Translations under genes and position numbers: made by a program
Notes under the pieces: model-generated
What the model was told of the DNA's origin: nothing
The model's database searches: none
The model's input: only the letters and a program-made list of their open reading frames with translations
Assembly: GCA_919901335.1 (NCBI GenBank)
Contig: CAKKOZ010000088.1
Location: 34,291-83,482, forward strand
Reading direction: 5' to 3'
Origin: Nitrospiria bacterium
GTDB lineage: Bacteria > Nitrospirota > Nitrospiria > JACQBZ01
DNA: 49,192 bases
In this document: positions 923 to 48,670 of the stretch, in pieces
Layout of the letters: each line of letters begins with the position of its first letter
How positions within the stretch are numbered: the first letter of the stretch is position 1

Positions 923-1695
923 TTAATCGCCTGCTCCAGATCTACCGGTACCGCGCACTGATCCAGATCCTGATCATCCGAGAGCTGAAGGCGCGGTATC
1001 GGGGGACCTTCTTGGGTTTTCTCTGGTCCTTTGTAAATCCTCTGGTCCTGATGGCGATCTATGTGCTGGTCTTTTCGATCTATCTGCGAATGGATATGGA
1101 GAATTATCCTGTTTTCCTGCTTTGCGGGATCCTTCCCTGGGCTTGGTTTTCCTCGGGGCTCAGTGAGGCGACACTTTCTATTATCGGGAATGGCAGCCTG
1201 ATCAAAAAGGTCTATCTTCCATCCGAGATCTTTCCTTTAGTCTCTATCGGCTCCAACATGGTGCATTATCTCCTGAGCATACCGATCCTGCTTATTTTCA
1301 TTGTCTCTTTTGGGATGGAACCTTCTTGGCCGCTGCTTTTGTTGCCGCTTATCTTTTTGATTCAGTTTGTTTTCACCTACAGCCTGGCGCTCATCCTGTC
1401 TTCACTGGCGGTGCAGTTTCGGGACCTGCTTCATATTGTGCCGAACTTCTTGATGATCTGGTTCTTCCTGACGCCCATTTTCTATCCCATGACCCTGGTG
1501 CCGGAAAAGTACCGCGCCCTGGTGGACTTCAACCCGATGGCTCAACTGATCATGGCGTACCAGGACATTTTCTTTTATAATCGCATCCCCTCGATACCGG
1601 GCTTGGCGGTATTAACGGGCCTGTCCTGTGTTCTATTGGTCATCGGTTTTTCTCTCTTTGAAGCCCGTAAAGATCTGTTTGCGGAAGAGGTGTAG
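919..1695 (+). CDS. wzm: ABC-2 type polysaccharide/O-antigen export permease (Wzm/TagG-like)
   Basis: 258 aa and polytopic. The N-terminal YRYRALIQILIIRELKARYRGTFLGFLWSFVNPL segment is typical of ABC-2 permeases. It lies directly upstream of the matching ATPase. Confidence 0.8.
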   Translation: MINRLLQIYRYRALIQILIIRELKARYRGTFLGFLWSFVNPLVLMAIYVLVFSIYLRMDMENYPVFLLCGILPWAWFSSGLSEATLSIIGNGSLIKKVYLPSEIFPLVSIGSNMVHYLLSIPILLIFIVSFGMEPSWPLLLLPLIFLIQFVFTYSLALILSSLAVQFRDLLHIVPNFLMIWFFLTPIFYPMTLVPEKYRALVDFNPMAQLIMAYQDIFFYNRIPSIPGLAVLTGLSCVLLVIGFSLFEARKDLFAEEV

Positions 1696-1698
1696 TCT

Positions 1699-2442
1699 GT
1701 GGCGGCGATCGAATTAAAAGGCGTATCCAAGAAGTACCGGAGGCATATCGAGCGGCCGCTGGCCACCACGCTCAAGTCCTATTTCTTGCGTGACCTGTGG
1801 CATCGTCGCGATGACAGCAAGGATGTCATCTGGGCCCTGCACAACGTAGATTTCAAGGTCGGACAAGGGACAACCGTGGGGATTATTGGTCGAAATGGTT
1901 CTGGAAAAAGCACGCTGCTGAAGCTCATCAGCCGGATCCTGAAGCCTGACGTGGGAACGGTGACTGTTCATGGAAAGGTCGCGGCTCTGCTCGAATTAGG
2001 CGCAGGCTTTCATCCCGAACTCACCGGGAGGGAGAACGTCATCATTAACGGGATTATCTTGGGGCTGACCAAAAGTGAGATCAAGTCCAAACTGGATGAG
2101 ATCATTGACTTTGCCGAGCTTCGGGAGTACATTGATGACCCGATCCGGACCTATTCCAGCGGGATGTATATGCGCCTGGGTTTTTCAGTCGCGGTGCATA
2201 TCGACCCCGAGATTCTCCTGATCGATGAGGTTCTTGCCGTGGGCGATGCCGCCTTTACGAGAAAGTGCATGGACCGTATGAACCATTTCAAGAAGGTGGG
2301 GAAAACCATGGTGCTGGTGACCCACGACCTCCGAATGGTCCGATCCTGGTGTGATGAAGGCATCTGGCTGAATAGGGGCGTTGTACAGATGCAAGGGAAT
2401 CCCGGCGACGTGGTCGAGGCCTATGCCAAAGAAACGCTTTAA
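1699..2442 (+). CDS. wzt: Polysaccharide/O-antigen export ABC ATPase (Wzt/TagH-like), short form without a C-terminal carbohydrate-binding domain
   Basis: Walker A is GRNGSGKSTLLKLI, the signature is YSSGMYMRLGF, and Walker B is LLIDEVLAVGD. At 247 aa it is only the nucleotide-binding domain. Confidence 0.85.
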   Translation: MAAIELKGVSKKYRRHIERPLATTLKSYFLRDLWHRRDDSKDVIWALHNVDFKVGQGTTVGIIGRNGSGKSTLLKLISRILKPDVGTVTVHGKVAALLELGAGFHPELTGRENVIINGIILGLTKSEIKSKLDEIIDFAELREYIDDPIRTYSSGMYMRLGFSVAVHIDPEILLIDEVLAVGDAAFTRKCMDRMNHFKKVGKTMVLVTHDLRMVRSWCDEGIWLNRGVVQMQGNPGDVVEAYAKETL

Positions 2443-2830
2443 TTCCGTCGCTGAGAAAGGTTTTACCCTTATCGAAATATTAATCGTTGTCGGCATCATA
2501 GGCCTCATCGCCTCCCTGGTCGTGCCTAATCTCCTGGGCCGATACGAGAGGGCCAAGGGGGAGATCGCGAAGGCCCAGGTGGAGATGCTCTCGTCGGCCG
2601 TTCAGGCCTTCATCCTGGATACGGGAAGATGCCCCAAGTCGCTGACGGACCTGATCCATTCGGACGATTCCAAATGGGAGGGGCCTTATCTTTCAAAAGA
2701 TAGGATCCCCCTGGACCCCTGGAACCGGGATTACCAATACAAATGTCCGGGAGAACATGGCCGCTTTGACATCTATTCCCTGGGGCCAAACAACCGGTTT
2801 GATGAAGAGAGTATAAAGAGCTGGGAATGA
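2423..2830 (+). CDS. gspG: Type II secretion major pseudopilin GspG
   Basis: Prepilin leader and processing site are MPKKRFNSVAEKG/FTLIEILIVVGIIG. The GspG hallmark WEGPYL...LDPWNRDYQYKCPGEHGRFDIYSLGPN is present. ATG at 2423 is preferred over the ORF start at 2381 and overlaps the wzt end by 20 nt. Confidence 0.88.
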   Translation: MPKKRFNSVAEKGFTLIEILIVVGIIGLIASLVVPNLLGRYERAKGEIAKAQVEMLSSAVQAFILDTGRCPKSLTDLIHSDDSKWEGPYLSKDRIPLDPWNRDYQYKCPGEHGRFDIYSLGPNNRFDEESIKSWE

Positions 2831-4512
2831 TGCTCATTGGAGATCTACTCATAAAGCTCTACGGCCTCAAGATCGAAGACATCGACCGGGCCCTGGAGAT
2901 CCAAAAACAAGTCGGGGGCGCCATCGGACAGCTCCTGATCCAGATCGGTTTAATTAATGAAACCCAATTGATTCATGCCCTCTCCGGGCAACTCAAACTC
3001 CCCGTTTACAATCATGAGAACGGCCTTCCCGATGTTGAAGGCCTACGGTCCTACCTGGAGGGAAAAATCGCCATCGACTTTGTCGTCAAGAACAAATTTG
3101 TCCCTGTGAGGATAGACCCTAAAGACCGAAAGGTCACTTTTATAACGAATGACCCGTTGAATAATTCTCTCCTGGATTACCTTGTCAAGTCCATGGACTA
3201 CGATCTGCAAATTCAATTGGCCCCTGAGGAGGTCATCAAGGATATTTCGAAAGCCTATTCTGCGGATTCCGTGGGGGAGACGGTTTCGTTATACATCAAG
3301 GAAACACCGGAGAGACTCAAAGAGATGGCCTTTGAGGCGCCGGTCATTAAATATCTCAACGGCCTCATCAGTCGGGCGGTGGAGTTAAGGGCCTCCGATA
3401 TTCATATTCAACCGTACGGAACGAAATATAAGATCCGGTTCAGAGTCGATGGCGTACTGCATGATACGGACTCGATCCCGGAGGAATTTTATCTTGCTCT
3501 GGTATCAAGGGTCAAGCTTCTTTCGAGCTTGAATATTGCGGAAAAGAGACTGCCTCAGGATGGAAAGTTAAGCACCCGGGTGAGTTCAACCATTCTGGAC
3601 ATCCGGATATCCACCCTCCCCACCGTGGGGGGCGAAGATGTCGTCATGAGGCTTTTATATCGGGAGAGACTCCACTTTGATCTGAGGTCTCTTGGGCAGA
3701 AAGAAGACCACTATCGCATGGCCGGGGATATGCTCTCCAAGCCCTACGGGATGATCCTCGTCACGGGGCCGACCGGTTCAGGAAAGACCACGACCCTTTA
3801 TTCGATGCTCACCTCCCTGAACAATAATGAAAAAAAAATCGTGACCATCGAAGACCCCGTGGAGTATCAGATTGAAGGTCTCAATCAGGTCCAGGTCAAA
3901 ACCGATATCGAATTGACCTTCGCCCATGCCCTCCGGTCCATCTTAAGACACGACCCGGACATCATCATGGTGGGGGAGATCCGCGACGTGGAAACAGCCA
4001 GGATATCCATCCGATCCGCCCTGACAGGCCATCTCGTTTTCTCCACACTCCACACCAATGATGCGCCCAGCAGCCTCTTTAGGTTTTTAGAGATGGGCAT
4101 TGATGACTATTTAATCAACGCCTCTGTGATCGGCATGATGGCCCAGCGGGTTGTTCGAACCAACTGCTCCTTCTGCATCCAGCCGGACCCCCTCCCTCCC
4201 CAGGTCCTGACCCAGTACCGGATCCCTGAGCTCTATGAAAAATTCCGCGACGTGGTGGGGAGCGATATCCAATTCAAAAGAGGGAAGGGATGTCATCGGT
4301 GCGTGGGGACAGGGTATCGAGGGCGGACCGCGATATTTGAGGTGCTGGAATATGACGAAGGCCTGAAGGAGATATTTTTAAAGCAACGATCCCTTGAAGC
4401 GATCCGGGCCTCCCTTCAGTCCCGCCCTGATTTCAGAACGCTCAGAGAGGATGGGATCCTAAAGGTCATCAACGGGTTGACCACCCTGGAAGAAGTTTTG
4501 AGGGTGACCTGA
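2827..4512 (+). CDS. gspE: Type II secretion ATPase GspE
   Basis: 561 aa with a GspE-type N-terminal domain. Walker A is GPTGSGKTTTLYS. VGEIRD and TGHLVFSTLHTN boxes are present, plus the tetracysteine motif CSFC...CHRC. ATGA overlap with gspG. Confidence 0.9.
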   Translation: MMLIGDLLIKLYGLKIEDIDRALEIQKQVGGAIGQLLIQIGLINETQLIHALSGQLKLPVYNHENGLPDVEGLRSYLEGKIAIDFVVKNKFVPVRIDPKDRKVTFITNDPLNNSLLDYLVKSMDYDLQIQLAPEEVIKDISKAYSADSVGETVSLYIKETPERLKEMAFEAPVIKYLNGLISRAVELRASDIHIQPYGTKYKIRFRVDGVLHDTDSIPEEFYLALVSRVKLLSSLNIAEKRLPQDGKLSTRVSSTILDIRISTLPTVGGEDVVMRLLYRERLHFDLRSLGQKEDHYRMAGDMLSKPYGMILVTGPTGSGKTTTLYSMLTSLNNNEKKIVTIEDPVEYQIEGLNQVQVKTDIELTFAHALRSILRHDPDIIMVGEIRDVETARISIRSALTGHLVFSTLHTNDAPSSLFRFLEMGIDDYLINASVIGMMAQRVVRTNCSFCIQPDPLPPQVLTQYRIPELYEKFRDVVGSDIQFKRGKGCHRCVGTGYRGRTAIFEVLEYDEGLKEIFLKQRSLEAIRASLQSRPDFRTLREDGILKVINGLTTLEEVLRVT

Positions 4513-5711
4513 TGGATTATAAATATCGGTGCGTTGATATTTCGGGAAAGGAAGTTCGGGGAGCATTGCCCGCCCTGGACATCGGCGATGCCAAATCCAG
4601 GTTGAAGGCGATGGGACTCATCGCGATTGAGTTGGCTGAAAGAAAGGACCTGTTTGTGAGGGAATACGGAGGTCGGAAAAGGATCACCGATACCGATTTA
4701 TACCATCTCTCGAAGGAATTGAGTGTTCTTTTAAGCGCGAGGATCACGATTGATAAGGCGATGGAGACGCTGATCGCCTCCGTCTCAAACGGAGCCGTCA
4801 AGGCCACGATGCAATATGTGTTAGGTGAAATGAAAGGGGGGAAGCGGTTATCCCAGGCCTTTGAAGAGACCCGGCGTTTCAACCCACTCGTGAATGTCAT
4901 GATCCGGGTCGGTGAGGATGTCGGGGATCTCCGATCGGCCTTCGAGAACATTGCCGAGTACATGCATTTTAAAATACAATTCAAGAACGAGATCCGAAAC
5001 GCAACCACCTATCCTCTTTTCCTGGTCGTCGCCAGCATGGTCACCCTTCTGGTGATCGTTAAATTAATCCTGCCGCGATTTTTCAGCATCTTTGGTCCCG
5101 ACAAGGCGTCGTTGCCCTTTGTGACCAAGGCGCTCTATTCCATCAGTCAATCCATCAATCTCACCAATCTACTGATCCTCCTGGTTCTGATGGGTCTCAT
5201 CGGGTTGGGGCTCCGGCGGATCAATCTCAGGGAGATGTTTCAAAAAGTCTACTCCTACCTGATCTTTATCCCCTTTTTAAAGAACATGATCATTTATCTT
5301 GAGCTGTCGAGGTTTTCCTATGCGATGTATTACATGCTCAAGGGGGGTGTTGAATTCATCCATGCCTTGCGGTTATCAACGGGCCTGATCCAAAACACCC
5401 CGATCCGGGTTGCCGTGGAAAGAACCCTCCCCCCGATTAAAGAAGGGAAAAGCATCGCCGAGGTGTTTTCTTATATCAGTTTCCTGCCCCCGATGATGCC
5501 CGGCATGCTGAGGGCGGGTGAAGCCAGCGGTAATCTGAAGGAGATCTTTTTTGAACTCTACCGTGTCTTTAATGAGCGCTTTACCAATTCCATGAAAAGG
5601 CTGGGCGTCCTTCTGGAACCCGTCATCATCACGATCACGGGGATCGTGATCGGGATCATCGTCATCTCATTGATGCTGACCGTCATGAGCGCCAGCAACA
5701 TCCGGTTATGA
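4512..5711 (+). CDS. gspF: Type II secretion inner-membrane platform protein GspF
   Basis: 399 aa with duplicated GspF/PilC-type cytoplasmic domains and three hydrophobic segments. TGATG overlap with gspE. Confidence 0.85.
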   Translation: MDYKYRCVDISGKEVRGALPALDIGDAKSRLKAMGLIAIELAERKDLFVREYGGRKRITDTDLYHLSKELSVLLSARITIDKAMETLIASVSNGAVKATMQYVLGEMKGGKRLSQAFEETRRFNPLVNVMIRVGEDVGDLRSAFENIAEYMHFKIQFKNEIRNATTYPLFLVVASMVTLLVIVKLILPRFFSIFGPDKASLPFVTKALYSISQSINLTNLLILLVLMGLIGLGLRRINLREMFQKVYSYLIFIPFLKNMIIYLELSRFSYAMYYMLKGGVEFIHALRLSTGLIQNTPIRVAVERTLPPIKEGKSIAEVFSYISFLPPMMPGMLRAGEASGNLKEIFFELYRVFNERFTNSMKRLGVLLEPVIITITGIVIGIIVISLMLTVMSASNIRL

Positions 5712-6100
5712 GAAAGGGGTTCACGCTGATTGAAATCCTGCTGGTGATGACGCTGATCGGGGTGATGTTATCCGTGGTCCTTCCGGTTTCCTATTCGATG
5801 GTCAAGCGCTACCAGGAATCGCTGGAGGCGGAGAAGGTGTTGATGCTCCTTTCGTCTCTAAGAAGGGAATCCTTTCTCTACAGCCGGGAGATGCGGATCG
5901 AAACCCAGGAGGGGGGCTTGATCATGGGGGATCATGAAGAAAAGAGATTCAAGGCCGTCTTTATCCATGCGGACCAACCCATCCTCTTTTATAAAAATGG
6001 GACGAGCTCGGGAGGGCAATTAGGGTTGAGGATGGAGAGCGGTTCCTATCTCATCCAGATCCAGGGCCCCTCGGGCGACATGAAACTCGTCCGACAATGA
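5708..6100 (+). CDS. Minor pseudopilin (GspH-like)
   Basis: N-terminus is MRKG/FTLIEILLVMTLIGVML, a prepilin cleavage/methylation motif with Glu5. 130 aa. ATGA overlap with gspF. The position after gspF and the FYKNGTSSGG segment fit GspH. Confidence 0.6.
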   Translation: MRKGFTLIEILLVMTLIGVMLSVVLPVSYSMVKRYQESLEAEKVLMLLSSLRRESFLYSREMRIETQEGGLIMGDHEEKRFKAVFIHADQPILFYKNGTSSGGQLGLRMESGSYLIQIQGPSGDMKLVRQ

Positions 6101-6107
6101 GAAGGGC

Positions 6108-6536
6108 ATGTTGAAGGGAAACAGGGGATTCCTTCTCATCGATGTCTTGATCGCCGGTCTCATCCTGTCCGCCAGCATTGCGGCAACGATGTATCTCTTC
6201 CGACTTGGCTTCGAACATCTCCAGGACAGGGCCCATGTCTCCAACGCCCTTTCCTCGAAACTACCCCAGTCCCTCAACCTGCTCCAGGTCACCGACCTGG
6301 AGCAAAAACAGGGCGTTGAGGAGATGGGAGGGGGTGTGACACTGGCCTGGGAGTCGGAGATCCTGGCGAGGACAAGGCCCGTGATGGGGACAGGGGAATC
6401 AAGCCTCCCCGGGGCCCATGAACTTTTCCTCTACCAGGTGAATTTTAAGCTCATCTATGGGAGTCATGCCAGGGAGTACGAGCTTCATGCCTTTCGGTAT
6501 AAGACGCTGGGTTCGCCTTCAGAGGGCGTATTCTAA
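6108..6536 (+). CDS. Minor pseudopilin (GspI-like), atypical Asp at position +5
   Basis: MLKGNRG/FLLIDVLIAGLILSASIAA is a prepilin-like hydrophobic N-terminus. 142 aa. Assigned by position in the pseudopilin series. Confidence 0.5.
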   Translation: MLKGNRGFLLIDVLIAGLILSASIAATMYLFRLGFEHLQDRAHVSNALSSKLPQSLNLLQVTDLEQKQGVEEMGGGVTLAWESEILARTRPVMGTGESSLPGAHELFLYQVNFKLIYGSHAREYELHAFRYKTLGSPSEGVF

Positions 6537-7197
6537 AGAAGGGTATACCCTCATCGAGGTCCTCATCGCGACGGCGGTCTTCAGCGCCATGGTCACCCTT
6601 GCCTCCCTGGCGCTCGATCAGGGCCTGAGACAGTACCGGGGGCTCATGGATCGTGGGATCACTTTTTGGGATAACGCCCGGTACCTCTGGATGAATAAAA
6701 GTTTTGCTTCGGCGGTGGATTATTATGTCCATTCCCGGGGGGACGGATGGTTTCCCTACTTCCGGGGCACCCAGGAAATCATCTCGTACGTCTCCGGTTC
6801 CCCCCTGGCGGGAGATCAGCCTGTGATCGTATGGATCCGAAACGAGCGCCAGGAGGACGGCCGTCGCTCGTGGGTCTATTACGAACAGCCGGTTTATGCC
6901 AAGGGACTCGAAGCGATCGAGCGGGACACCCTCTTCGGGGATTTTAAAAAGGGGAATTCGATCACGCTCCTTAAGGATCTCGAAGCCCTGACGGTCTCGT
7001 TCTATGGCTATGATCCCATGAATAAGCAAGCGTCCTGGACCGCCGATTTTGACGGCCGCAAGAGACGGTTCCTCCCCGAGTTGATCAAGGTGGATTATCA
7101 GGACACGGAGGAAAAAGTAAAAAAAACGATGTTATTTGGGATCAAGACCCATTCACCGATGAAGACGGTTTACAACGAGCGATACCCCCATGAATGA
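6487..7197 (+). CDS. Minor pseudopilin (GspJ-like)
   Basis: Contains ...SKEG/YTLIEVLIATAVFSAMVTLA, a prepilin motif with Glu5. The start is uncertain (ATG at 6457, 6466 or 6487). It overlaps the end of the previous gene. Confidence 0.55.
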   Translation: MPFGIRRWVRLQRAYSKEGYTLIEVLIATAVFSAMVTLASLALDQGLRQYRGLMDRGITFWDNARYLWMNKSFASAVDYYVHSRGDGWFPYFRGTQEIISYVSGSPLAGDQPVIVWIRNERQEDGRRSWVYYEQPVYAKGLEAIERDTLFGDFKKGNSITLLKDLEALTVSFYGYDPMNKQASWTADFDGRKRRFLPELIKVDYQDTEEKVKKTMLFGIKTHSPMKTVYNERYPHE

Positions 7198-8101
7198 GAA
7201 ACAGAAGGGCTCGGCGACCCTCCTGACCCTCTTCGTCTCCGCCATGCTTATTACGGTGGGCATTGGGTTCAACGGGATGGTGAAGGAACACCTGAAGGCC
7301 GCAGAGGACTTGAAGGTCAAGACCGAGGCGATGCTCCGTGCGAGGTCGGCCCTGGACACCCTGACGTATCTCCTCCTGAGCGGAAAAAAAACCTCCAGGG
7401 AATATCTCCTTCAAGCGAACGAACGACTTCTGGACCTTCCGAGGATCCCGCTCAACGGTGATCCCGTGACGGTCGAGGGGGAGGTCAAGATCAGCCTCCA
7501 GGACAGCCACGGGCTGCTCTCATTGACCTCCTTAAACGAATCCGCCGTAAAGCGGCTGATCGAACAGGTGTCGGGCGAAAATGCAGGCGGGATCATGGCG
7601 GGTTATCTGGATTGGACGGACCGCGACCGGTTGATCCGGGTGAATGGGGCGGAAGAATCCTACTACCATTCCGTCGGGTTTCCATACGAGCCGAGAAACT
7701 ATCCCATCCAGTACAAAGAGGAGATGGCCCTGATCAAGGGGATGACGAAAGAGCTGTATCAAAAAATCGAACCCTCCATCACGCTCCTTCCTTCGTTGGG
7801 TTTTAATCCCAATACCGCCTCGGAGGCTGTTTTAAGGGCCTATCTCAATATTGACACGGATGCCGCGAGAGGGCTGAAAGAGGCCATCGCTCAAAGACCC
7901 ATCCTATCCGATATCGAGTTATTTGCCCTGACGGGAAGACAAATCGCGACGGATGAAGGGGTCTATTTTTACCCCTCTCGCTGGATGGAGCTCACCCTTC
8001 AAAGCGGGGCTCCCGATCCGGTTTATACGATTCATGTGGGGATGGATACCCGTCCAACCCTCCGGGCCCCCTACACCCTCGTCTACTGGAGGGAGGAATA
8101 G
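7190..8101 (+). CDS. gspK: Minor pseudopilin GspK-like
   Basis: Hydrophobic N-terminus GSATLLTLFVSAMLITVG without Glu5, as in GspK. GspK-like segments YYHSVGFPYEPRNYPIQYKEEMALIKGM and GFNPNTASEAVLRAYL are present. Confidence 0.65.
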   Translation: MNEKQKGSATLLTLFVSAMLITVGIGFNGMVKEHLKAAEDLKVKTEAMLRARSALDTLTYLLLSGKKTSREYLLQANERLLDLPRIPLNGDPVTVEGEVKISLQDSHGLLSLTSLNESAVKRLIEQVSGENAGGIMAGYLDWTDRDRLIRVNGAEESYYHSVGFPYEPRNYPIQYKEEMALIKGMTKELYQKIEPSITLLPSLGFNPNTASEAVLRAYLNIDTDAARGLKEAIAQRPILSDIELFALTGRQIATDEGVYFYPSRWMELTLQSGAPDPVYTIHVGMDTRPTLRAPYTLVYWREE

Positions 8102-8103
8102 GC

Positions 8104-9261
8104 GTGCTCGTATCCTACTGGCATAAAGACGGCATGGAGGTCTACCGCGTGAAAGACGCCGGGATCGAGACGGTGGCCTCCGGCCGGTTGGATGCCATTC
8201 GGCCCTTCACCGGATGGGGTCGAAAGGTCATGATCGTGGGGCGGGATCGCCTTTTGTGGACGAGAAAGAGGTATCCTCCCACGACAGGAGAAAACCTCGC
8301 GAAGGCCATTCAGATGGATCTTAAAGAACTCTTCCCCCTAAAAGACCCGGCCTTCTCCTTCCGGATCTTCGAGCAGACCCCCGCCTACAGCCTTGTGGAT
8401 ATATGGACATGGGATCGCTCGGACCACCCCGCGATCCGGAAGATTTTTCCGTGGAGCCACATCGTGCCCGAGGATGCGGCGTTCGTCTCCGACGAGTCCG
8501 AGATCAGGGTCCTTGACGATCCGAATGGGCGCCATCTCATGGCACACAACAAAGATGGATTTCTCGGTCGGTTATCCCTAAGGCATCTCACCGGGAAAGA
8601 CGTGGAGCTGTTTTTAAGAAGCCTCGGGAAACACGGCCGGGAGATCAAAACGATAAGACTTCAAACGGCTCCGGGCGAATTAGAGCTCAGCGAAACGATA
8701 CCGGTCGTCCATGAACCGCCGGGGGAATACCCTCCCTGTCTGAAGGACATCCGGCGACTGAACCTCAAGCCCTTTCGATCGGCCCCGGTCATGTCGATGA
8801 TCGCCGCGGTTGATTTCGTGCCGAGGCTGGTTCTCTATCTGATGATCGTCTATGCGGCCTCCCTCTACATCACCCAGGGTCGTTACGACCGAACGATTCA
8901 GGAAACCTCCCAGAGACTCGACGGCCTGACAAAGACGCTCTCGGCCGCAAGCCTGGAGGAAAGCGACCCCTCCGCCCGTACCCTGGCAGAACTTCAAGAA
9001 AGGCGGAAATCCAGGGTGGAGCCCCTCGAGATCATGAACGCACTGGCGAGGAGCCTTCGAGCGCAAAGCGCCGTGACCCGGATGGTCTTGAATGAAAACA
9101 GCCTCGAACTTTCCATCGCCTCAAAGGAGCCTTTAGAGGTCATCCGGGGCCTTTCAACGGCGAATTGCGTTCAGTCGGTAAAGCTAAGGGGAAGCCCGTT
9201 TCAAGGCGAGGGAAACGTCTATAACTTCCTGCTTACATTGGAGCTGAAGCCGTGCAGTTAA
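8104..9261 (+). CDS. T2SS assembly protein, GspL-like (PilM/PilN-type architecture)
   Basis: 385 aa: a cytoplasmic domain of about 230 aa, one TM segment (VPRLVLYLMIVYAASLYI), then a coiled-coil plus small periplasmic domain. GTG start is preceded by GGGAGG. The call rests on architecture and position only. Confidence 0.5.
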   Translation: MLVSYWHKDGMEVYRVKDAGIETVASGRLDAIRPFTGWGRKVMIVGRDRLLWTRKRYPPTTGENLAKAIQMDLKELFPLKDPAFSFRIFEQTPAYSLVDIWTWDRSDHPAIRKIFPWSHIVPEDAAFVSDESEIRVLDDPNGRHLMAHNKDGFLGRLSLRHLTGKDVELFLRSLGKHGREIKTIRLQTAPGELELSETIPVVHEPPGEYPPCLKDIRRLNLKPFRSAPVMSMIAAVDFVPRLVLYLMIVYAASLYITQGRYDRTIQETSQRLDGLTKTLSAASLEESDPSARTLAELQERRKSRVEPLEIMNALARSLRAQSAVTRMVLNENSLELSIASKEPLEVIRGLSTANCVQSVKLRGSPFQGEGNVYNFLLTLELKPCS

Positions 9262-9797
9262 GGGGGTTCTATAGCAGGGAACGACTCAGAACGCTGGGGA
9301 TTTATCTCATTGTGATCCTCGCCCTCTTTCGATTGGTCCTGCTGCCTTTAAACAACGCTGTGAAGGACCGAAAGGTCCTGCTGACGGAATACCTCGAAAC
9401 CTACCGGACCAAGGCGATGACGCTTAAAAAACAGGCGGGGGAGGTCGAAAATCAGCTGACTCCGGGGCAAAAAAATAGGCTCCTAACCTCTCTCTATTCG
9501 AAGGGCTCTTCCGATTCGATGATCCAGTCGGACGTCCTTCGGGTGGTCATCAAGGAAGCCGAGAAGAACGGGCTGATGATGATCAATTTCGAGCTTCCGG
9601 AGACGCTGCGCGATCCGGACCTGAGCGAGATCCCCGTTCTGGTCAGGCTCAAAGGATCACCCAGGGCGATGATCAGACTGTTAGAAGGGATCTCTCAGAT
9701 GAAGGCGCTCACGGAGGTGAGGATGCTTCAAATCGAAAAATTTTCGGAGGACTGGGTCCTGATCCTGACCCTAAGCGCCTACCGGACGGAGACATGA
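9252..9797 (+). CDS. T2SS assembly protein, GspM/PilO-like
   Basis: 181 aa with an N-terminal TM segment (LGIYLIVILALFRLVLLPL) followed by a periplasmic domain. It overlaps both neighbours. The call rests on architecture and position only. Confidence 0.45.
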   Translation: MQLRGFYSRERLRTLGIYLIVILALFRLVLLPLNNAVKDRKVLLTEYLETYRTKAMTLKKQAGEVENQLTPGQKNRLLTSLYSKGSSDSMIQSDVLRVVIKEAEKNGLMMINFELPETLRDPDLSEIPVLVRLKGSPRAMIRLLEGISQMKALTEVRMLQIEKFSEDWVLILTLSAYRTET

Positions 9798-10294
9798 TCA
9801 AAAAATACGGGATAGACCTTGTTTTTCTACTAACATTTGTGGTATCTGTTCCCTGGCTTGTGATTGAGACGCCGAAGAGGGACGGCCCTGCGGCGACGGG
9901 CCCGATCGGGGCCTCTCAGGGACCGGAGGCGAAAACCGTCGCGACCCCTCGATCGGAAAAGGGCTACGGGAGGATAAAGGCCCGCAATCTCTTTTCACCG
10001 GATGGCTCTTACCCTCTTGCCCAGGGGACGGGCCCCTCAACCTCACCGAACGAGTCCCACCGCCTTGTGGGCGTGCTGGGAACCGGGCAAAAAAAGGCGG
10101 TCTTGATGAAATCCACGGGGGAGGTTGTGTTCTTAAATGAAGGGGACAAATTCGAGGATGGCTTCGTGGTCACCCGGATTGACCCTCTGACGGTGGGATT
10201 AAAAAAAGGAGCGAAGGAAAAGGAGCTCAAAATATTTCAGCTTGAACCGGGAACGACATCGGACCGTCCCACGATTGAAAGGAGATCGCCCTGA
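9794..10294 (+). CDS. Small GspC/PilP-like secretin-interacting protein
   Basis: 166 aa: a TM segment (LVFLLTFVVSVPWLVI), a linker, and a C-terminal beta-rich segment HRLVGVLGTGQKKAVLMKSTGEVVFLNEGDKFEDGFVVTRIDPLTVGL that resembles the GspC HR / PilP fold pattern. No PDZ or coiled coil. Confidence 0.45.
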   Translation: MIKKYGIDLVFLLTFVVSVPWLVIETPKRDGPAATGPIGASQGPEAKTVATPRSEKGYGRIKARNLFSPDGSYPLAQGTGPSTSPNESHRLVGVLGTGQKKAVLMKSTGEVVFLNEGDKFEDGFVVTRIDPLTVGLKKGAKEKELKIFQLEPGTTSDRPTIERRSP

Positions 10295-12318
10295 AAACGC
10301 CCCTGGATCACTATCTGTCCTGGTTGGGGATCCTGCTGCTGTCCGGCTGTGCCGGGCTCCCATCCTCCGCCGGCCCCCTGAAAGGGGAGCCCACGGCCCC
10401 GCCGGCCCAGACCGGGGCGATCGGAACCGGGGAAGAAGCGGCCCCTCCCGGGGAGCGGCCCTCCGGGAAAGTCGAGACCTTGATCCTTCCGGACTATGAG
10501 CGGCCGCAATCGGAGACGCCGGTTCTCCTTTCGCCGATTGATCCGGCGCTTCTCGGCTTGGAAGACACACCGGTCATGATCAATGCGGATGGCATGCCCA
10601 TTTCGGATTTCATCACCTACGCCATTGGAAACAGCCTCAAGGTGCCCTTCTTCATGGACGAGGCGGTCAAAACCCTCAAGACACCCGTCACCCTCCGAAT
10701 GCCCCGGGAGGTCCCGGCCCCCCTGGCATTGGAGCTTGCCGTTGGGATCCTCCTTCAAAATAATCTCACCGTGGGGCAAAGGGCGGGAAGCCTCTTTATA
10801 CTGAACCCCAAGCCCGAGGCGCCAGCCCCCTTCGATGTGCAAATCGGACGGGGTCGGTCCGAGACTCCGGGCCTGATCGTTCAACTCGTCCCCTTAAGGC
10901 ATACCCGGCCCGCGGATATCGAATCCCTGATCCGGGATCTCTACAAAACAGGCGTCACGATCAAGACCTATCCGAGGGAAAATGCGCTTCTTCTCACCGG
11001 ACCGGGAACGGCCATCAAGGATATCTTAAACTTTGTCGAGATGTTGGATGTTCCCTATCTAAATGAAAAAAGGGTCGTGATGATCCAGCTTACCTACTGG
11101 GGCCCCGATGAGTTTATCCAGCAGATCGGCATGATCCTGCAGCGCCTCGGGTTTGCGATGGCCGGATCTCCCCAGGAGCCCGGGATTTCATTTATCCCGC
11201 TTAAATTTTTAAACAGCCTTCTCATCGTTGCGCCGGATGAGACCACACTGAAAGTGGTTCTTGAATGGAAAGACCGCCTCGACACGGCCGAGTCCGCCGG
11301 GGCGGGCGAAAAGGCCTTCAGCTACAGCCCCAAGTACTCAAAAGCCTCCGATCTCGCCGATGCCATCAAGCGGCTTTATGGGCTTCTCCCGGCCAAGGAC
11401 AAGGCCCCGCTTCCGGCGCCGACCACCGCGGGGTTCAAGATGGAGGCGGATGATAGACGCAACCTACTGCTGATGATCACCACTCCCTCCATCTATAAGG
11501 TCCTCCTCTCGCTTCTCGATCAATTGGACAAGCCCCCAAGACAGGTCCTCCTCCAGACGACCATCGCCGAGCTCACCTTGACCGACCAGCTCAAGTATGG
11601 ACTGGAATGGTTTATCAACAAAACCATCGACCGGGGGGCCTATACGGTGCAGACCCTCGGCCAGCTGGGCTTAAGCACGGGCCAGGGACTCACCTTTCAG
11701 GCCATCTCGGACACCAAGCTGCTTCAGGTGGCGATCAGCGCCCTTGCCGTGGATAACAAGATCAATATCCTGTCCAATCCGAGAGTCATGGTCTTAGATA
11801 ACGAGGAGGCCACCATCCAGATCGGCACCGAGGTCCCCATTGTCACGGGAGAGGTCTCCGCCTCGGACGTGACCCAGACGCAGAGCCCCAGCATCGTGCG
11901 AAACATCCAGTACCGGAGCACCGGGGTGATCTTAAGGGTCAAGCCCACCATCAACACCGAGGGGCTGCTCACCTTGAGCATCTCTCAGGAGGTGAGCGAG
12001 GCCCAGAGCAATCCCACCTCCGGGATTGACTCCCCCATCATCCTCGTCCGGAGGATCAATACGCAGGTCGTGGCCTCCCATCGCGAGTCCATCATCTTGG
12101 GCGGCCTCATGTCCGAGAATGTGAGCACCACCGAAAACAAAATCCCTCTTTTAGGGGATATTCCTCTCTTAGGCCATCTTTTTAAAACCACCTCGCGGGG
12201 GAAGACGAAGACGGAATTGATCATACTGATCACCCCCACCATTCTCACGACCACCGAGGATGCGGTGAGGGTGACCGAGGAGATCAAGCGGGGGCTCAAG
12301 GGTCTTAAACTGCCTTAG
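10291..12318 (+). CDS. gspD: Secretin GspD, predicted lipoprotein form
   Basis: The C-terminal secretin core includes ILSNPRVMVLDNEEATIQIGTEVPIVTG, VILRVKPTINTEGLLTLSISQEV and NKIPLLGDIPLLGHLFK. The N-terminus has a lipobox LLLSGC followed by a Pro/Ala/Gly-rich linker. The track start is TTG 10324. I prefer CTG 10291, which has AAGGAG 6 nt upstream and a CTGA overlap with the upstream stop. Confidence 0.85.
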   Translation: MKTPLDHYLSWLGILLLSGCAGLPSSAGPLKGEPTAPPAQTGAIGTGEEAAPPGERPSGKVETLILPDYERPQSETPVLLSPIDPALLGLEDTPVMINADGMPISDFITYAIGNSLKVPFFMDEAVKTLKTPVTLRMPREVPAPLALELAVGILLQNNLTVGQRAGSLFILNPKPEAPAPFDVQIGRGRSETPGLIVQLVPLRHTRPADIESLIRDLYKTGVTIKTYPRENALLLTGPGTAIKDILNFVEMLDVPYLNEKRVVMIQLTYWGPDEFIQQIGMILQRLGFAMAGSPQEPGISFIPLKFLNSLLIVAPDETTLKVVLEWKDRLDTAESAGAGEKAFSYSPKYSKASDLADAIKRLYGLLPAKDKAPLPAPTTAGFKMEADDRRNLLLMITTPSIYKVLLSLLDQLDKPPRQVLLQTTIAELTLTDQLKYGLEWFINKTIDRGAYTVQTLGQLGLSTGQGLTFQAISDTKLLQVAISALAVDNKINILSNPRVMVLDNEEATIQIGTEVPIVTGEVSASDVTQTQSPSIVRNIQYRSTGVILRVKPTINTEGLLTLSISQEVSEAQSNPTSGIDSPIILVRRINTQVVASHRESIILGGLMSENVSTTENKIPLLGDIPLLGHLFKTTSRGKTKTELIILITPTILTTTEDAVRVTEEIKRGLKGLKLP

Positions 12319-12340
12319 CAGAGGGATACCGATAAAAAAC

Positions 12341-12369
12341 TTGACATCTCTTTTTGCCTCTGATATCAT
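12341..12369 (+). promoter_or_regulatory. Sigma-70-type promoter P1 upstream of the 12656 gene
   Basis: TTGACA (12341-12346), a 17-nt spacer, and TATCAT (12364-12369) with an extended -10 TG at 12361-12362. Confidence 0.6.
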
Positions 12370-12450
12370 TCGCCCTTATATTTGGTATTTGGGTGCGGGA
12401 CCCAAAAGGCGGGGCCCAAAAAACGGAATAAAAACAGAATAAAAAAAAGC

Positions 12451-12480
12451 TTGACAGGCCCTTCCGGGTCTTGGTAGTAT
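12451..12480 (+). promoter_or_regulatory. Sigma-70-type promoter P2 with an A-tract UP-like region
   Basis: TTGACA (12451-12456), an 18-nt spacer, and TAGTAT (12475-12480) with an extended -10 TG at 12472-12473. It is preceded by phased A-tracts (12404-12448), including GAATAAAAA twice. Confidence 0.65.
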
Positions 12481-12580
12481 CCACCGAACACAGAAAGAGC
12501 CCATCGAAAGGAGGGGTGATCAAAGCGGGGCCGCTCCCCAAAAGCTTTTTTAAAGAATGTGATTTTGAGTCGGCAATGGG

Positions 12581-12612
12581 TCATTCAGAGAAAACGAGTC
12601 TCATTCAGAGAA
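12581..12612 (+). repeat. Perfect 12-nt direct repeat TCATTCAGAGAA x2 in the 5' leader
   Basis: Copies lie at 12581-12592 and 12601-12612, a 20-nt period, 44-75 nt upstream of the ATG at 12656. Confidence 0.9.
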
Positions 12613-12655
12613 GACAAATAAAGGCGGGTAGTTCACACAACAAGGAGGTTTCAAG

Positions 12656-14194
12656 ATGAAGGCGAATACGGTATTCAGGAAGGGATGGATGGCAGTGGTA
12701 GGAATCGTGGCGGTCGGCCTGATGGCCGGCTCGGCGTTTGCGGGCGTGCTTTCCACAACGGCTAAAACAGTCGCTGCTGAGTTAGTAGGATCTGCCGATG
12801 TGGCAGTACCAACAACTGTAGCGCCTCTTTCGTTTCGTACAGAGGTTGATATCACTGCAGGTGCGACCTTTACCATCACACTCACGGGTGGTAAATTTAC
12901 GGGAGCCGCGGCGAGGCAATTAGCGATCTGTAGCGGGACAACTGATCTAGCAACTTCTGCGGTATTTGCCGCTGACTCAGCTACGGCACTACTCACAGTT
13001 CTTGCCGGACAATCACTGGCAGGTGCGTCCATTTATGCGATTCAATTTGGAGCGGATACCGGTGATGTTGACATTCTGGTGTGCAATGAGGTAGGCGGTG
13101 CTGCTCCTTCGGCTTCTCTGCCGGTAAAGGTAAACGGCAATGCAGTTGCCGGTGCGACCATCACTACAGCAGTCACAGCGTCCAGTGTTGCTGGAGTAAC
13201 CTCCGCTGTTGTAACCATGTATACACTTTCGAATCAGTTCTCAGCGGTACTTAGCCCGGTCATCTCCACCATTGATTTTACCTCGACCAGCTTAAGAAAT
13301 TTCAAAGCGGATCCAGCAACAGCTCCTCCTGACACGACAGCCACCCAGTCGCAGGCCGGATTGCTCATATTGAGCGTTGAGACTTTGGATAATAAAGTCA
13401 CGAGTGGAGCAGCCGATACGACTTGTGCAAGTTCTGGCTTAGCTGCAAACGACACACTAAATGTCGTAGTCAGCGGTACCTTTACGGAAGCTCTGAAGAC
13501 AACTGCTGGTCTAGTGGTTCGCGATCTGGTAAACGGTGCAGACGTTGCTGCGAGCGCAGCCATAACGACTTCGACGACTTCAGCAACGGTTCCTATGCCT
13601 GGCAATACGCTAAAAATCTGCGGTTCCAATTCTACGGCAGCTACGAGAGTCGGTAACGTAGAGTATGTCCAGATAACAGTGGATGGAACGACATCACTTG
13701 TACCGAGAACCTTCACAGCATCAGTTACATTTGTGGGTACAGGAACAAACATCAAGCAGGCGAGGACCTTAGTGGCTTCCGGTACGTTGAGCCATACATA
13801 CAAGCTCGATGCCACCCAGCTCTATGTGCCTCTCGTGAAGAGCGATGCGGCAACAGGTACGGAAACCTACATCAAGCTTCAGTCGAAGAGCACGGTTTCC
13901 GGCTCGAACGCCGTAAAGGTGGCGATCCTCGCTTCAGATGGGACGACATCGGCCAACTTTAATGCCGGGAGCATCGTCGCTGGGACACCGCTCACGATCA
14001 CGGGCACCCAGTTGGTCGCCGCAGCGACCGCCGCCGGTAAAACAGTGAGCGGGACATCCGGATTTGCGGTCATCATTACCGTGGATTCTCCGGAAGCCGA
14101 TCTGTTTGCCTTTGCGAACATTGTAGACGCAATAGGTCCAAAGCGGGTTCCGGTGAAGACTGTCAATGCCCACAACGGTGGTATCTCTGAGTAG
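12656..14194 (+). CDS. Secreted Ala/Thr/Val/Ser/Gly-rich protein, candidate S-layer or major surface protein
   Basis: SD AAGGAGG (12642-12648) lies 7 nt before the ATG. The Sec signal peptide is MKANTVFRKGWMAVVGIVAVGLMAGSAFA/GV. The mature protein has few charged residues. Codon usage is visibly different from the neighbours (many A/T-ending codons). I recognise no family motif. Confidence 0.55.
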   Translation: MKANTVFRKGWMAVVGIVAVGLMAGSAFAGVLSTTAKTVAAELVGSADVAVPTTVAPLSFRTEVDITAGATFTITLTGGKFTGAAARQLAICSGTTDLATSAVFAADSATALLTVLAGQSLAGASIYAIQFGADTGDVDILVCNEVGGAAPSASLPVKVNGNAVAGATITTAVTASSVAGVTSAVVTMYTLSNQFSAVLSPVISTIDFTSTSLRNFKADPATAPPDTTATQSQAGLLILSVETLDNKVTSGAADTTCASSGLAANDTLNVVVSGTFTEALKTTAGLVVRDLVNGADVAASAAITTSTTSATVPMPGNTLKICGSNSTAATRVGNVEYVQITVDGTTSLVPRTFTASVTFVGTGTNIKQARTLVASGTLSHTYKLDATQLYVPLVKSDAATGTETYIKLQSKSTVSGSNAVKVAILASDGTTSANFNAGSIVAGTPLTITGTQLVAAATAAGKTVSGTSGFAVIITVDSPEADLFAFANIVDAIGPKRVPVKTVNAHNGGISE

Positions 14195-14212
14195 TCTTTA
14201 ACCATTAAGAGG

Positions 14213-14250
14213 AAAAAGGGCGGGCGGAAATAATGCCCGCCCTTTTTTTT
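14213..14250 (+). terminator. Rho-independent terminator (bidirectional shape)
   Basis: Stem GGGCGGGC (14218-14225), a 9-nt loop, GCCCGCCC (14235-14242), then T8 (14243-14250). An A5 tract precedes the stem. Confidence 0.85.
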
Positions 14251-14279
14251 AGGGCCACCACTCGTTTTCGGGGAAGTCC

Positions 14280-17200
14280 ATGCCGGTGCGAATTCTCCTT
14301 TGCGGTTACTACTTTCAAGGCAATCGGGGGGATGACCTGCTGAGGGAGTCCATCCGGAAGACACTGAGCCGGCATGGAGAGGTTCGGGGCGCCTCCACCG
14401 AGACCTTTGATCCCGATCTGTTGGACTGGTGTCAGCTTCTCGTACTCGGGGCGGGGAGCCTGATTACGCCTCGAGGGATCGGGGGCTACCGCCACGCGCA
14501 GGTTGCACGGGAAAAAAACAAAAAGATCTTTTATTATGCCCAGACGATTGAAGCCGGCCATCCCCACTTTCAGGAACACCTCGCACGGGCCGATCTGATT
14601 ACGGTGAGGGACTCCGCGTCAAAAAAGGTGGTGGAAGACCACGGGTTTCGGGCGGTGCTGACCGGGGACCCCCTTTTTGAGAAAAAGAGACGAAAGATCG
14701 GTTTTTCCTTCCGGAGATGGGTCAACGAGCCGGCCCGGATCGAAGAAGCCCTGGCTGCCCTGTTGGATGAGTTGGCCTGGGACGACGAAGTGCTCTCCCT
14801 CCCCTATACGGAGCATTCGACGGATACGGAAAGCGACACGGCCTTCCATGAGGCGATCATTCACAAGATGAAAAACAAGCCGAGGCTTTCGGCCTTTGAC
14901 GATGCGATTGGGAGCCTTGACCTGTTCATCGGGATGAGGCTTCATGCCCTTCTAAGCGCCGTTCATCGGGGGAAGAACGTGCTGGCGATTGATTACGATC
15001 CAAAGATAAGGCGGATCTTTGCGGATCTGGGAATGGAGGACAGGGTCGTCTCTTATGAGGAGGTCCATACGATAGCCCGAAGGGTGAAGGACCATATTTT
15101 CAGGCTGGATGCGCTGGCCTTGAGAGAAAAAGCAAACGAGGCGCTGATCGCCCGAATCTGCGCCGATATCAAGGGGGAGCCCATGCCCCGGATATCCGTG
15201 GTGATGCCGACCTATAATAGAGCCGACTATCTCAACGAGGCGATTGATTCCATCCGGGCGCAGACCCTATCGGACTGGGAATTGGTGATCGTGGATGACG
15301 GAAGCACCGACACGACCCGGTCACGGGTGGAATCCTACAAAGACCCGCGGATCCAATACCACCGCTTCGGCCATCAGGGCATCAGCTTCTCAAGAAACAT
15401 AGGAAGTCTCCTCAGCCGGGGTCCGATCATCGCCGTGGCGGACTCCGATGATATCAACCTGCCCAACCGATTGGAAGTGACCTTGAAAGAAATGGAAGAG
15501 AGCGGGGCGGACCTCTTCTATTCATCCATGTTCCACCTCGATGACACGGGGAAAAAGGAGAAGATCCCCAGCCGGCCTTATTCGTATCAACGACTTCAAG
15601 CGGGAAACTTTATATACCACCCGACGGTCGCGTACCGGCGGGAGGTCGCCCTAACGTGCCCCTACCCTGAAAACCTTGAGATGGTCGAGGACTACCATCT
15701 GTACCTTCAAGCCGCCCGGAAAGGATACCGATTTCACCGGGTGGAAGAGCCCCTGATCCTGCACCGGCTGCACGAGGAGCAGATCTCTTCGGTGAGAAGC
15801 GGGGAGATGGCGGAAATCCACAAAAAATTAGTGGATTCAAAAGGCCGGGCCCTACAGAATGAGAGGGACGGGAATCACCCGATGGTCAGCGTTATTGTGC
15901 CCACCTATAATCGTCCCGGCCGGCTCAAAGAGGCATTGATGAGCGTTCTCTCCCAAACCTATCCGGACGTTGAGATTATTGTGGTGAATGATGCCGGTGA
16001 CGATGTCACGGAGGTCGTCGATTCCCTGAATCATGAAAACAAGATTGTCCATCTTCAGCATCATGAAAACAAAGGTCTTGCGGCGTCAAGAAATACGGGG
16101 TTGAAAGCGGCCCGGGGGACGTATGTGGCCTATCTCGATGATGATGACATCTACTATCCCAACCACCTCGAAACCCTGGTCGGGTTCCTTGAAGAAAGCC
16201 GCTCCCCGGTTGCGTATACGGACTCCCATCAGGCGTTTGAGACATGGATACCCGATCGCTATGTGATGACGGGGAAAAGAGTCGCGTATAGCTCCGACTT
16301 TGACCGCCAGAAACTACTGGTGCATAACTATATCCCGGTGCTCAATCTCATTCATCGGAGGGACCTCCTTGAAAAAACCGGGTTTTTTGATGAAGGGCTC
16401 GATACCCATGAAGATTGGGATCTGTGGATCCGGCTCGCCCAGCAGTGTGATTTCCACCATATCAAGGCAGTCACCGCAGAGTTTAGAACCCGCTTGGATG
16501 AGAACCGCATCACCTCTTCCGGCAACCGCAAGTCCTTCTTAAGGACCTTAAGAATCATCCACGCCCGATACGCGCCCCTCGTCGCGGATCCCCGCCTCTT
16601 TGAACAACAGAGACAATTTCAGGAGTCGCTTGCCGCCGAGGTGGAAATCATTCATAAGGATTCCTCCCTCATCCAGTATGAGCGATTGCACCAATACGGG
16701 TTTGCAAAAGAATTTGTAAAGGGCAAAAAGGTTCTGGATTTAGCCTGCGGGGAAGGGGAGGGGAGCTTTCTTTTGTCGGCGGCGGCCGCGTCCGTGACGG
16801 GGATGGATGCCCATGATAAAAAGATAAGAGATGCCTCATCCAGGCATGTAAAGGAAAATCTGAGATTCATCAAAGGGTCCATGGCAAGCAACCCGATCGA
16901 AGGGGAAAAAATATTTGATGTGATCGTTGCCTTTGAGGCATTCGAGCCGGGTGTCGAGCCGAATGACTTCATAAGAGAGGTAAAAAGGCTCCTAAAAGAT
17001 AAGGGGATATTCATCGTCTCCACATCGAACGAAACAGCGCACAGGGATTTTGCCTCCGGAGACCGGCCCCATCACAAGGGCTTTTATTTTCAGGAATTTA
17101 AGGAATTATTGGAGGGGTGTTTTAGGCGGGTCCGGTTTATCGGCCAGGGTATTTATTATAGTTCGAACCTGTGGCCGATCTTTTCCGATGAGAACGCGAA

Positions 17201-25643: not shown

Positions 25644-25754
25644 ATTTAGAGAGGCGATATAGTCCTAAGGAGGACGGTTGTCGAATCCTTCCTGTTTTAT
25701 GCAGATACTGGCAATTTTGATGCCTTTTCCCGCTGAGTTGAGGGTGGTTCAAAC

Positions 25755-26732: not shown

Positions 26733-26735
26733 ATC

Positions 26736-47716: not shown

Positions 47717-47746
47717 TTGACACCCCGAATCGTCCTCTGGTATGAT
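47717..47746 (+). promoter_or_regulatory. Sigma-70-type promoter placing the TSS at or next to the ribE start codon
   Basis: TTGACA (47717-47722), an 18-nt spacer, and TATGAT (47741-47746) with TG at 47738-47739. The ribE ATG is at 47754. Confidence 0.5.
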
Positions 47747-47753
47747 GAAGCGC

Positions 47754-48442: not shown

Positions 48443-48457
48443 TAGCAACACATAAAA

Positions 48458-48604: not shown

Positions 48605-48670
48605 AGCGGCTCGTTTCTCTCCGACCGAAGAGGGGAGATGAGCCCACCTTAGGGTGAAGAAGCAGGGTGC

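Follow-up and report, generated by a model that had tools for sequence, protein, structure and literature searches.

Which product is encoded by the 512-codon gene that stands between a type II secretion system (T2SS) and a series of very large glycosyltransferase genes in an uncultured bacterium of the phylum Nitrospirota? The gene (12656-14194, + strand, ATG start) lies in a window of 49,192 nucleotides (nt), which corresponds to positions 34,291 to 83,482 of contig CAKKOZ010000088.1 (Nitrospiria bacterium, assembly GCA_919901335.1). A sequence-only reading, generated by a model from the DNA and a list of its open reading frames (ORFs), had described its product as an orphan secreted protein. 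The analysis presented here indicates that the gene probably encodes the precursor of a surface-layer (S-layer, or surface array) protein, which would belong to a divergent branch of the Slr4 family and be exported by the upstream T2SS. Positions given without a locus name are those of the window.

The basic description of the gene in the earlier reading is sound: the 512-amino-acid (aa) ORF was confirmed exactly, and the classical Sec signal peptide ending AFA/GV is borne out both by its three-region structure and by conservation in the family. The N-terminus, MKANTVFRKGWMAVVGIVAVGLMAGSAFA|GV, combines a basic n-region (K2, R8, K9), a hydrophobic core and an A-x-A motif at -3/-1. According to the -3/-1 alanine rule, cleavage is predicted at AFA|GV, which assigns residues 1-29 (12656-12742, +) to the signal peptide and predicts GVLSTT as the N-terminus of the mature form. 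The GLMAGSAFA motif is kept in nearly all relatives in the family alignment, and residues 6-23 form a helix in the AlphaFold2 model. The mature protein would have 483 aa, a mass of 47.8 kDa and a pI of about 4.9. As had been claimed, Ala, Thr, Val, Ser and Gly dominate (60.7% of residues), charged residues are few (Asp, Glu, Lys and Arg, 11.3%) and there are only four Cys, a number that is conserved among the relatives. Ser and Thr together make up 24% of the protein.

The term "orphan", and the claim that no other family could be recognised, hold only for direct searches. Searches of Pfam, NCBIfam and PDB sequences with the window protein, as well as a PDB search with a 16-sequence profile, gave nothing useful. 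However, profile searches of larger databases revealed 180 relatives and a link to Slr4. A word-indexed search returned 16 homologs, one of which is an identical NCBI entry from a Nitrospirota metagenome-assembled genome (MAG), named "hypothetical protein"; the remaining ones share 33-56% identity with it. When the family profile was then run exhaustively with HMMER against 1.84 billion cluster representatives, 180 proteins were obtained at E <= 1e-3, including 76 at E <= 1e-30, most of which are 450-530 aa long and align from end to end. Another large-database search with a broad profile added almost nothing, and a scan of species genomes found three loci only. Ten distant relatives yielded no cluster-member name other than "hypothetical", or none at all.

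These relatives lead to a family of known function. The Pfam family PF19526 (S-layer protein Slr4) is matched by 4 of the 16 close relatives and by 22 of the 100 broader relatives scanned (E <= 1e-3), and no other family recurs among these 100. The full-length homologs P0014, P0015, P0026 and P0071 score 41.8, 50.0, 37.9 and 38.3 bits, respectively, against a curated cut-off of 25 bits; the matches of the first three span positions 9-370 of the 370-position model, and the alignment of P0014 with the window protein covers 95% of its length (E = 1.8e-26). The Slr4 protein of Pseudoalteromonas tunicata (EAR28894), whose sequence scores 219 bits on PF19526, was also reached from the side of the new family: a second-iteration profile built from 100 relatives (A3) gives it 39.9 bits, whereas none of 1000 composition-matched shuffles exceeds -17.6, in a collinear alignment of profile positions 50-482 with Slr4 residues 111-568. 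With a profile of the C-terminal domain alone, Slr4 scores 23.3 bits and the best shuffle -3.5. Judged from these profile comparisons, the homology with Slr4 is real but remote, and because the window protein has no Pfam match while its relatives match PF19526, it is assigned to a divergent subfamily that the current Pfam model misses.

Gene order supports the same assignment. A complete T2SS, in the order G-E-F-H-I-J-K-L-M-x-D, ends 337 nt upstream of the gene, and orthologs of its secretin (36-50% identity) adjoin the homolog in six of the eight other loci compared (L003, L005, L006, L007, L008 and L009); in L007 the T2SS and the homolog are convergent. Locus L004 offers too little upstream sequence to judge whether a T2SS is present. 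In P. tunicata, the slr4 gene immediately follows a T2SS cluster (G, E, F, K, D), and its product was shown by transmission electron microscopy (TEM) and knockout to form an S-layer with a square lattice (PMC7821379). The window protein shares with Slr4 a Sec signal peptide, a similar size (512 versus 579 aa), a composition rich in Ala, Thr, Val, Ser and Gly, a gene placed directly 3' of the T2SS cluster, and a remote, significant and collinear homology that includes the C-terminal domain. It differs in that it comes from a Nitrospirota MAG, remains below the Pfam threshold without significant pairwise similarity, and is shorter in its N-terminal part. In addition, its unit lies inside a Wzm/Wzt glycan cluster that also encodes a conserved pyruvyl-transferase/glycosyltransferase enzyme, a nesting that we have not found reported for Slr4.

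A second S-layer protein with comparable features is NpdA of Paracidovorax citrulli and Delftia (PMC10765051): its mass is about 52 kDa, it starts with a Sec signal peptide, none of its domains is recognised, and its gene stands beside a gsp (T2SS) cluster. A relationship between the N-terminus of NpdA and the C-terminal domain of the present family was considered and rejected: the 16-sequence (A1), A3 and C-terminal profiles all score NpdA of P. citrulli and its Azoarcus ortholog below composition-matched shuffles. Other S-layer types were also considered. No Pfam match to an SLH domain was obtained for the window protein at E <= 10, nor any to RTX/HemolysinCabind. An S-layer protein of the RsaA type (type I-secreted RTX) was ruled out by the N-terminal signal peptide, the lack of RTX, the T2SS neighbours and the absence of RsaA from the Foldseek results.

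The predicted structure is in agreement with a surface role. AlphaFold2, supplied with the family alignment, gives a confident model (pLDDT 81, pTM 0.71) in which an N-terminal helix, corresponding to the signal peptide, is followed by approximately four beta-sandwich domains; the mature 483-aa part (12743-14194, +) is thus predicted to be all-beta. Its best-conserved part is a C-terminal beta-sandwich domain (residues ~373-505; 13772-14170, +), which carries the pattern TYIKLQSK ... FAxxxxV ... YAN ... KRxPV and contains 24 of the 25 invariant columns of alignment A1. Modelled alone, this domain reaches a pLDDT of 86, and its best match in the PDB has an E value of 0.028, with no significant solved fold relative. 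When the whole model was compared with the PDB by Foldseek, only chains of immunoglobulin (Ig)-like domains were found (PrgB, antigen I/II, Bap and RbmA), at TM-scores of about 0.25. Such a predicted fold fits a surface structural protein and would rule out an enzyme or a beta-barrel; on its own it does not identify the function. Of the hidden Markov model (HMM) and fold comparisons that the sequence-only reading had proposed as a check, the profile search leads to the Slr4 S-layer family, and Foldseek gives only generic Ig-like surface proteins. As a separate observation, a gene for a DsbC-type disulfide isomerase is present in L009 (5909-6709) between the secretin and the surface-protein homolog, which fits periplasmic oxidative folding of a four-Cys subunit.

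The location of the protein could also be explained in another way. A Sec signal peptide alone leads only to the periplasm and the homolog in L001 has no T2SS nearby, so the window protein might be a periplasmic or outer-membrane protein unrelated to the T2SS, with the adjacency being coincidental. We find this very improbable, since an orthologous secretin adjoins the homolog in six of eight independent loci from different lineages, one of them in the opposite orientation, and the model consists of stacked beta-sandwiches and not of a barrel. Moreover, no periplasmic or enzymatic family, the kind of match that had been named as incompatible with a surface protein, was found in Pfam or NCBIfam.

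A closer competitor accepts export by the T2SS and proposes an adhesin or biofilm-matrix protein of Ig-like domains, which would coat or bridge cells without forming a regular two-dimensional lattice. The best Foldseek matches, PrgB, antigen I/II, Bap and RbmA, are in line with this proposal, all with low TM-scores, and Slr4 itself was described as a major component of the biofilm matrix (PMC7821379). However, the same study makes Slr4, the nearest relative that has been studied, a protein that forms a square lattice by TEM, and matches at TM ~0.25 are generic. The size, acidic pI, low Cys number and low content of charged residues suit S-layer subunits, and the nesting of a dedicated T2SS within an O-polysaccharide cluster recalls the Aeromonas A-layer locus. 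A matrix protein without a lattice is consequently considered unlikely, and an S-layer protein of the Slr4 family remains the preferred assignment.

Several candidate expression signals belong to the gene itself. The 337-nt intergenic region between the secretin gene and the gene under study contains five promoter-like sites against 1.2 expected. Two of them are sigma-70-type candidates with a TG-extended -10 element: TTGACA-17-TATCAT (12341-12369, +), which matches the consensus at 11 of 12 positions, and TTGACA-18-TAGTAT (12451-12480, +), at 10 of 12. They would imply a leader of approximately 175-285 nt. In L003 and L008, TTGACA-type sites were also found, 250-480 nt before the homolog. A structured 5' leader, as in some S-layer mRNAs, was not supported by folding of this region (z = 0.62). 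A Shine-Dalgarno sequence, AAGGAGG (12642-12648, +), can be read 7 nt before the ATG. Downstream of the gene, a putative intrinsic terminator (14210-14250, +) is formed by the stem GGGCGGGC / GCCCGCCC followed by T8; with an A-tract upstream, it is bidirectional in shape. Its hairpin has a folding free energy (dG) of -27.1 kcal/mol and a z-score of -5.35, and none of 200 shuffles folded equally well. The L003 homolog is likewise followed by a terminator, of 17 bp. In the leader, an exact 12-nt direct repeat, TCATTCAGAGAA, occurs at 12581-12592 and 12601-12612 (+), 20 nt apart and ~45-75 nt before the start codon. At least two matches were obtained in 4 of 100 shuffles in a post hoc test, and the repeat may be a candidate binding site for a regulator.

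Codon usage also sets the gene apart. The G+C content at third codon positions (GC3) is 0.502, whereas it lies between 0.63 and 0.79 in 29 of the 31 other measured ORFs and near 0.68 in the neighbours. Synonymous choice for Ala, Thr, Val, Gly and Pro departs from that of the pooled neighbours (p from 1e-4 to 7e-13), with a shift toward GCA/GCT, ACA/ACT, GTA, GGT and CCT. Part of the compositional description in the sequence-only reading needs to be amended. Its count of 50% GC at 12781-12840 is exact, and the gene does deviate from most ORFs; however, two glycosyltransferase (GT) genes deviate more (GC3 0.41-0.42), so it does not differ from all of them in this respect, and the flanks are not uniformly at about 60% GC, the measured values being 58.5% upstream and 54.0% downstream. 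These two genes, of the GT2 family (21792-23678 and 25755-26732, +), have a GC content of 0.416 and 0.430 and a GC3 of ~0.41-0.42, well below the other measured ORFs, and look like acquired cassettes within the glycan cluster.

That reading had left two explanations for the codon bias, high expression or foreign origin. In the second, the gene would be a recent import, and several facts could be cited for it: the GC3 of 0.50 against ~0.68 in the neighbours, the two clearly low-GC GT genes in the same cluster, the patchy, cross-phylum distribution of the family, and the horizontal transfer reported for Slr4 (PMC7821379). On the other hand, the overall GC content of the gene (0.531) is near the window mean (0.546), the shift being limited to synonymous sites, and the homologs are shifted the same way (GGT up, GGG down, GTA/GTT up). 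Among these, GGT is enriched in five of six loci, all six show GGG either depleted or flat, and GTT/GTA take the place of GTC/GTG, while the GC3 of the neighbouring genes spans 0.28-0.66. GC3 alone gave mixed results across genomes, and more could be learned from comparing individual codons. Since the homologs show a similar skew although their genomes differ widely in GC content, selection tied to the gene, most simply for high expression, appears to be favoured over a single foreign acquisition. The strong expression signals point in the same direction, and a recent foreign origin appears doubtful. Three antisense ORFs opposite or near the gene (12601-13032, 13234-13815 and 13879-14364) are treated as by-products of the composition of the sense gene.

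Several results weigh against the assignment to the Slr4 family and to an S-layer. Scanned against Pfam, PF19526 included (curated cut-off 25 bits), the window protein itself matches no family even at E <= 10. The direct BLASTP comparison with Slr4 is not significant (E = 2.7), and hhalign with the small profile (A1) aligns Slr4 with a probability of 32% over 66 columns only; for these two reasons the link depends on intermediates. The Slr4 sequence used here was obtained by machine reading of the PMC7821379 supplement, in which a few errors may have arisen. Foldseek searches of the PDB with the whole model and with the C-terminal domain matched no solved S-layer protein. The homolog in L001 has no T2SS within 10 kb upstream, and the promoter and terminator assignments are consensus matches only. 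Independent evidence from the Slr4 family, the synteny with the T2SS in six of eight loci, the expression signals and the codon bias supports what the sequence-only reading had proposed, namely a structural protein of the cell surface that is highly expressed and travels as cargo of the neighbouring T2SS.

How would such a layer be held on the cell? The genes that flank the T2SS offer a possible answer. The unit is organised in the order RmlD-Wzm-Wzt, T2SS, surface-protein gene, giant glycosyltransferases; RmlD-Wzm-Wzt directly precede the T2SS, and Wzm/Wzt are also found beside the homologs in L003, L004 and L005. In Aeromonas salmonicida, an rml/wzm/wzt O-antigen cluster, wb(salmo), houses vapA together with its dedicated Sps T2SS, beside the 1122-aa WbbB, and the A-layer is tethered to the cell by lipopolysaccharide (LPS) (PMC4483657). 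The layout of the two loci is alike: rhamnose genes and wzm/wzt flank a dedicated T2SS, and the gene for the surface-array protein of about 50 kDa comes last, before very large glycosyltransferases. They differ in that the insertion lies between wzm and wzt in Aeromonas, while both precede the T2SS in the window, and in that the hosts belong to different phyla. By this analogy, the window closely reproduces the logic of the Aeromonas A-layer/O-antigen locus.

The same genes could also serve to modify the protein. In this alternative, the product would be an S-layer glycoprotein, in which a capped rhamnan made by the flanking Wzm/Wzt, WsaF-type and methyltransferase genes is attached covalently to Ser/Thr, as in SgsE of Geobacillus stearothermophilus, instead of serving as an LPS tether. 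The window does hold WsaF domains, methyltransferase-GT fusions, RmlD and Wzm/Wzt, and the protein contains 24% Ser and Thr. In the low-GC relative L007, the homolog starts 30 nt after the end of a gene group (764-9971) for a nonulosonic-acid pathway (NeuB, CMP-sugar synthetase) and a Maf-type glycosyltransferase (Maf_flag10_N/MptE), a layout that hints at flagellin-style O-glycosylation of a Sec/T2SS substrate. Glycosylation is thus indicated by the WsaF-type enzyme and by the Maf-type transferase beside the L007 homolog. However, no oligosaccharyltransferase or ligase (Wzy_C-type, WsaB/PglL) was found among the 31 window ORFs scanned; one could be encoded outside the window. A high Ser/Thr content is also common in unglycosylated S-layer proteins. 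In Aeromonas, the closest genomic precedent, a like cluster makes the tethering LPS O-antigen (PMC4483657). Given this precedent and the lack of an oligosaccharyltransferase in the window, tethering is indicated instead, and by analogy the flanking glycan genes may make a polysaccharide that tethers the layer and not a protein glycan. Covalent glycosylation is regarded as possible, if rather improbable.

The comparison with Geobacillus can be extended to its S-layer glycosylation (slg) cluster (SgsE, WsaE, WsaF and Wzm/Wzt), to which the Pfam scan provides a link through the WsaF match. Both loci would have a WsaF-type domain, methyltransferase-glycosyltransferase fusions, rhamnose synthesis and Wzm/Wzt beside a candidate or known S-layer gene. 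In contrast to Geobacillus, the host of the window is presumed to be Gram-negative from its T2SS and secretin, and neither an SLH domain nor a WsaB-type oligosaccharyltransferase was found.

Taken in sequence, the following model can be proposed for the Slr4-like S-layer protein. The gene would be transcribed as its own unit from strong promoters and efficiently translated, and the Sec pathway would bring the precursor to the periplasm, where the signal peptide would be cut after Ala29. The acidic 47.8-kDa protein would fold there into approximately four beta-sandwich domains, probably with two disulfide bonds. The folded subunit would then cross the outer membrane via the dedicated upstream T2SS (GspG-E-F-H-I-J-K-L-M-x-D), self-assemble on the surface and, as in the Aeromonas A-layer, be held by the O-polysaccharide of the surrounding ABC-transporter glycan cluster.

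If correct, this model puts forward a specific protein as the candidate surface coat of a Nitrospirota lineage that has not been cultured; a full-text search of a literature collection combining "S-layer" and "Nitrospirota" retrieved no paper with either term in its title or abstract. In a 2020 survey, Slr4 was confined to a single phylum and to marine metagenomes (PMC7821379); the superfamily and its dedicated T2SS would then reach well beyond marine Gammaproteobacteria and include sequences missed by the present Pfam model. A family model of wider scope could be built from the alignment, with which such "hypothetical proteins" would be annotated. The window protein is thus a divergent addition to an already known type of system and not an orphan, and it overturns nothing.

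The conserved pairing with the pyruvyl-transferase/glycosyltransferase enzyme suggests a testable tethering hypothesis. Orthologs of this first giant enzyme, 55-66% identical, adjoin the homologs in L001 (12477-16913), L003 (17405-19378) and L004 (6214-8886), and it is far better conserved than the surface protein, which is 33-40% identical in full-length matches. A more speculative extension, to which we give little credence, is that the T2SS, the surface protein, Wzm/Wzt and the pyruvyl-transferase/GT are inherited together as an "S-layer island", which would have been passed from one phylum to another (its carriers being Nitrospirota, Desulfobacterota, Proteobacteria and a Clostridia-labelled MAG). 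The C-terminal beta-sandwich would then be a new type of module, distinct from SLH, by which the layer attaches to an O-polysaccharide, pyruvylated or methyl-capped, that the pyruvyl-transferase/GT produces. If true, this would amount to pyruvate-dependent anchoring of an S-layer in Gram-negative cells, independent of SLH domains.

The Clostridia label comes from L006, a MAG contig named "uncultured Clostridia bacterium" that shows the same T2SS-secretin, homolog and pyruvyl-transferase/GT layout (6606-14360). With tblastn, only the C-terminal part of its surface protein can be recognised, and it is not covered by any intact ORF of at least 100 aa. The N-terminus may be very divergent, the gene may be disrupted, or the contig may be mis-binned.

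The T2SS genes of the window are all on the + strand. The first encodes the major pseudopilin GspG (2381-2830), which carries the prepilin motif KGFTLIEILIV and is 72% identical to the T2SSG-annotated gene of L007; its true start is probably an internal Met near 2423. It is followed by the ATPase GspE (2827-4512; Pfam T2SSE, 2.8e-129) and the platform protein GspF (4512-5711; T2SSF, 2.5e-40). Three minor pseudopilins, H-like (5708-6100), I-like (6108-6536) and J-like (6457-7197), were assigned by their N-terminal methylation motif and a fourth, GspK (7190-8101), by a match to T2SSK_1st (1.4e-17); a Pfam N_methyl match was found among the minor pseudopilins (5708-8101), and their orthologs occur in the same order in L003, L006 and L007. 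The L-like (8104-9261) and M-like (9252-9797) assembly-platform proteins and the 166-aa protein "x" (9794-10294) had no match in the Pfam scan and were assigned by position and by orthologs in L003, L006, L007 and L009; the L007 counterpart of the M-like protein carries PilO. The last gene encodes the secretin GspD (10324-12318; Secretin, 6.9e-46; Secretin_N, 1.9e-25). The secretin N-terminus, MGILLLSGCAG (10324-10360, +), contains the lipobox LLSGC, and from this motif the secretin may be a lipoprotein that needs no separate pilotin.

The glycan genes, also on the + strand, begin with RmlD for rhamnose synthesis (11-922; Pfam RmlD_sub_bind, 3e-89), the ABC-2 permease Wzm (919-1695; ABC2_membrane, 5.7e-18) and the ATPase Wzt (1699-2442; ABC_tran, 2.4e-21). 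Downstream of the surface-protein gene, two giant enzymes of approximately 1200-1300 aa each were identified by their Pfam domains. The first (14280-17909) combines a pyruvyl transferase, two GT2 domains, a methyltransferase and a coiled coil of about 130 residues, and resembles chain-length "ruler" enzymes. The second (17899-21822) combines a GT2 domain, a WsaF-type rhamnosyltransferase, with matches to the N- and C-terminal WsaF domains at 3.3e-21 and 3.5e-42, and a methyltransferase. According to Pfam, the region 21792-31965 then contains GT2 genes, a methyltransferase, a MurJ-type flippase, two GT1/GT4 genes and an initiating sugar-phosphate transferase (Bac_transf). Finally, near the distal end of the window, a full-length cobalamin riboswitch (Rfam RF00174, 106.9 bits, E = 6.9e-26) is located at 48446-48615 (+), just after the ORF at 47742-48404, and the gene that it regulates runs off the end of the window.

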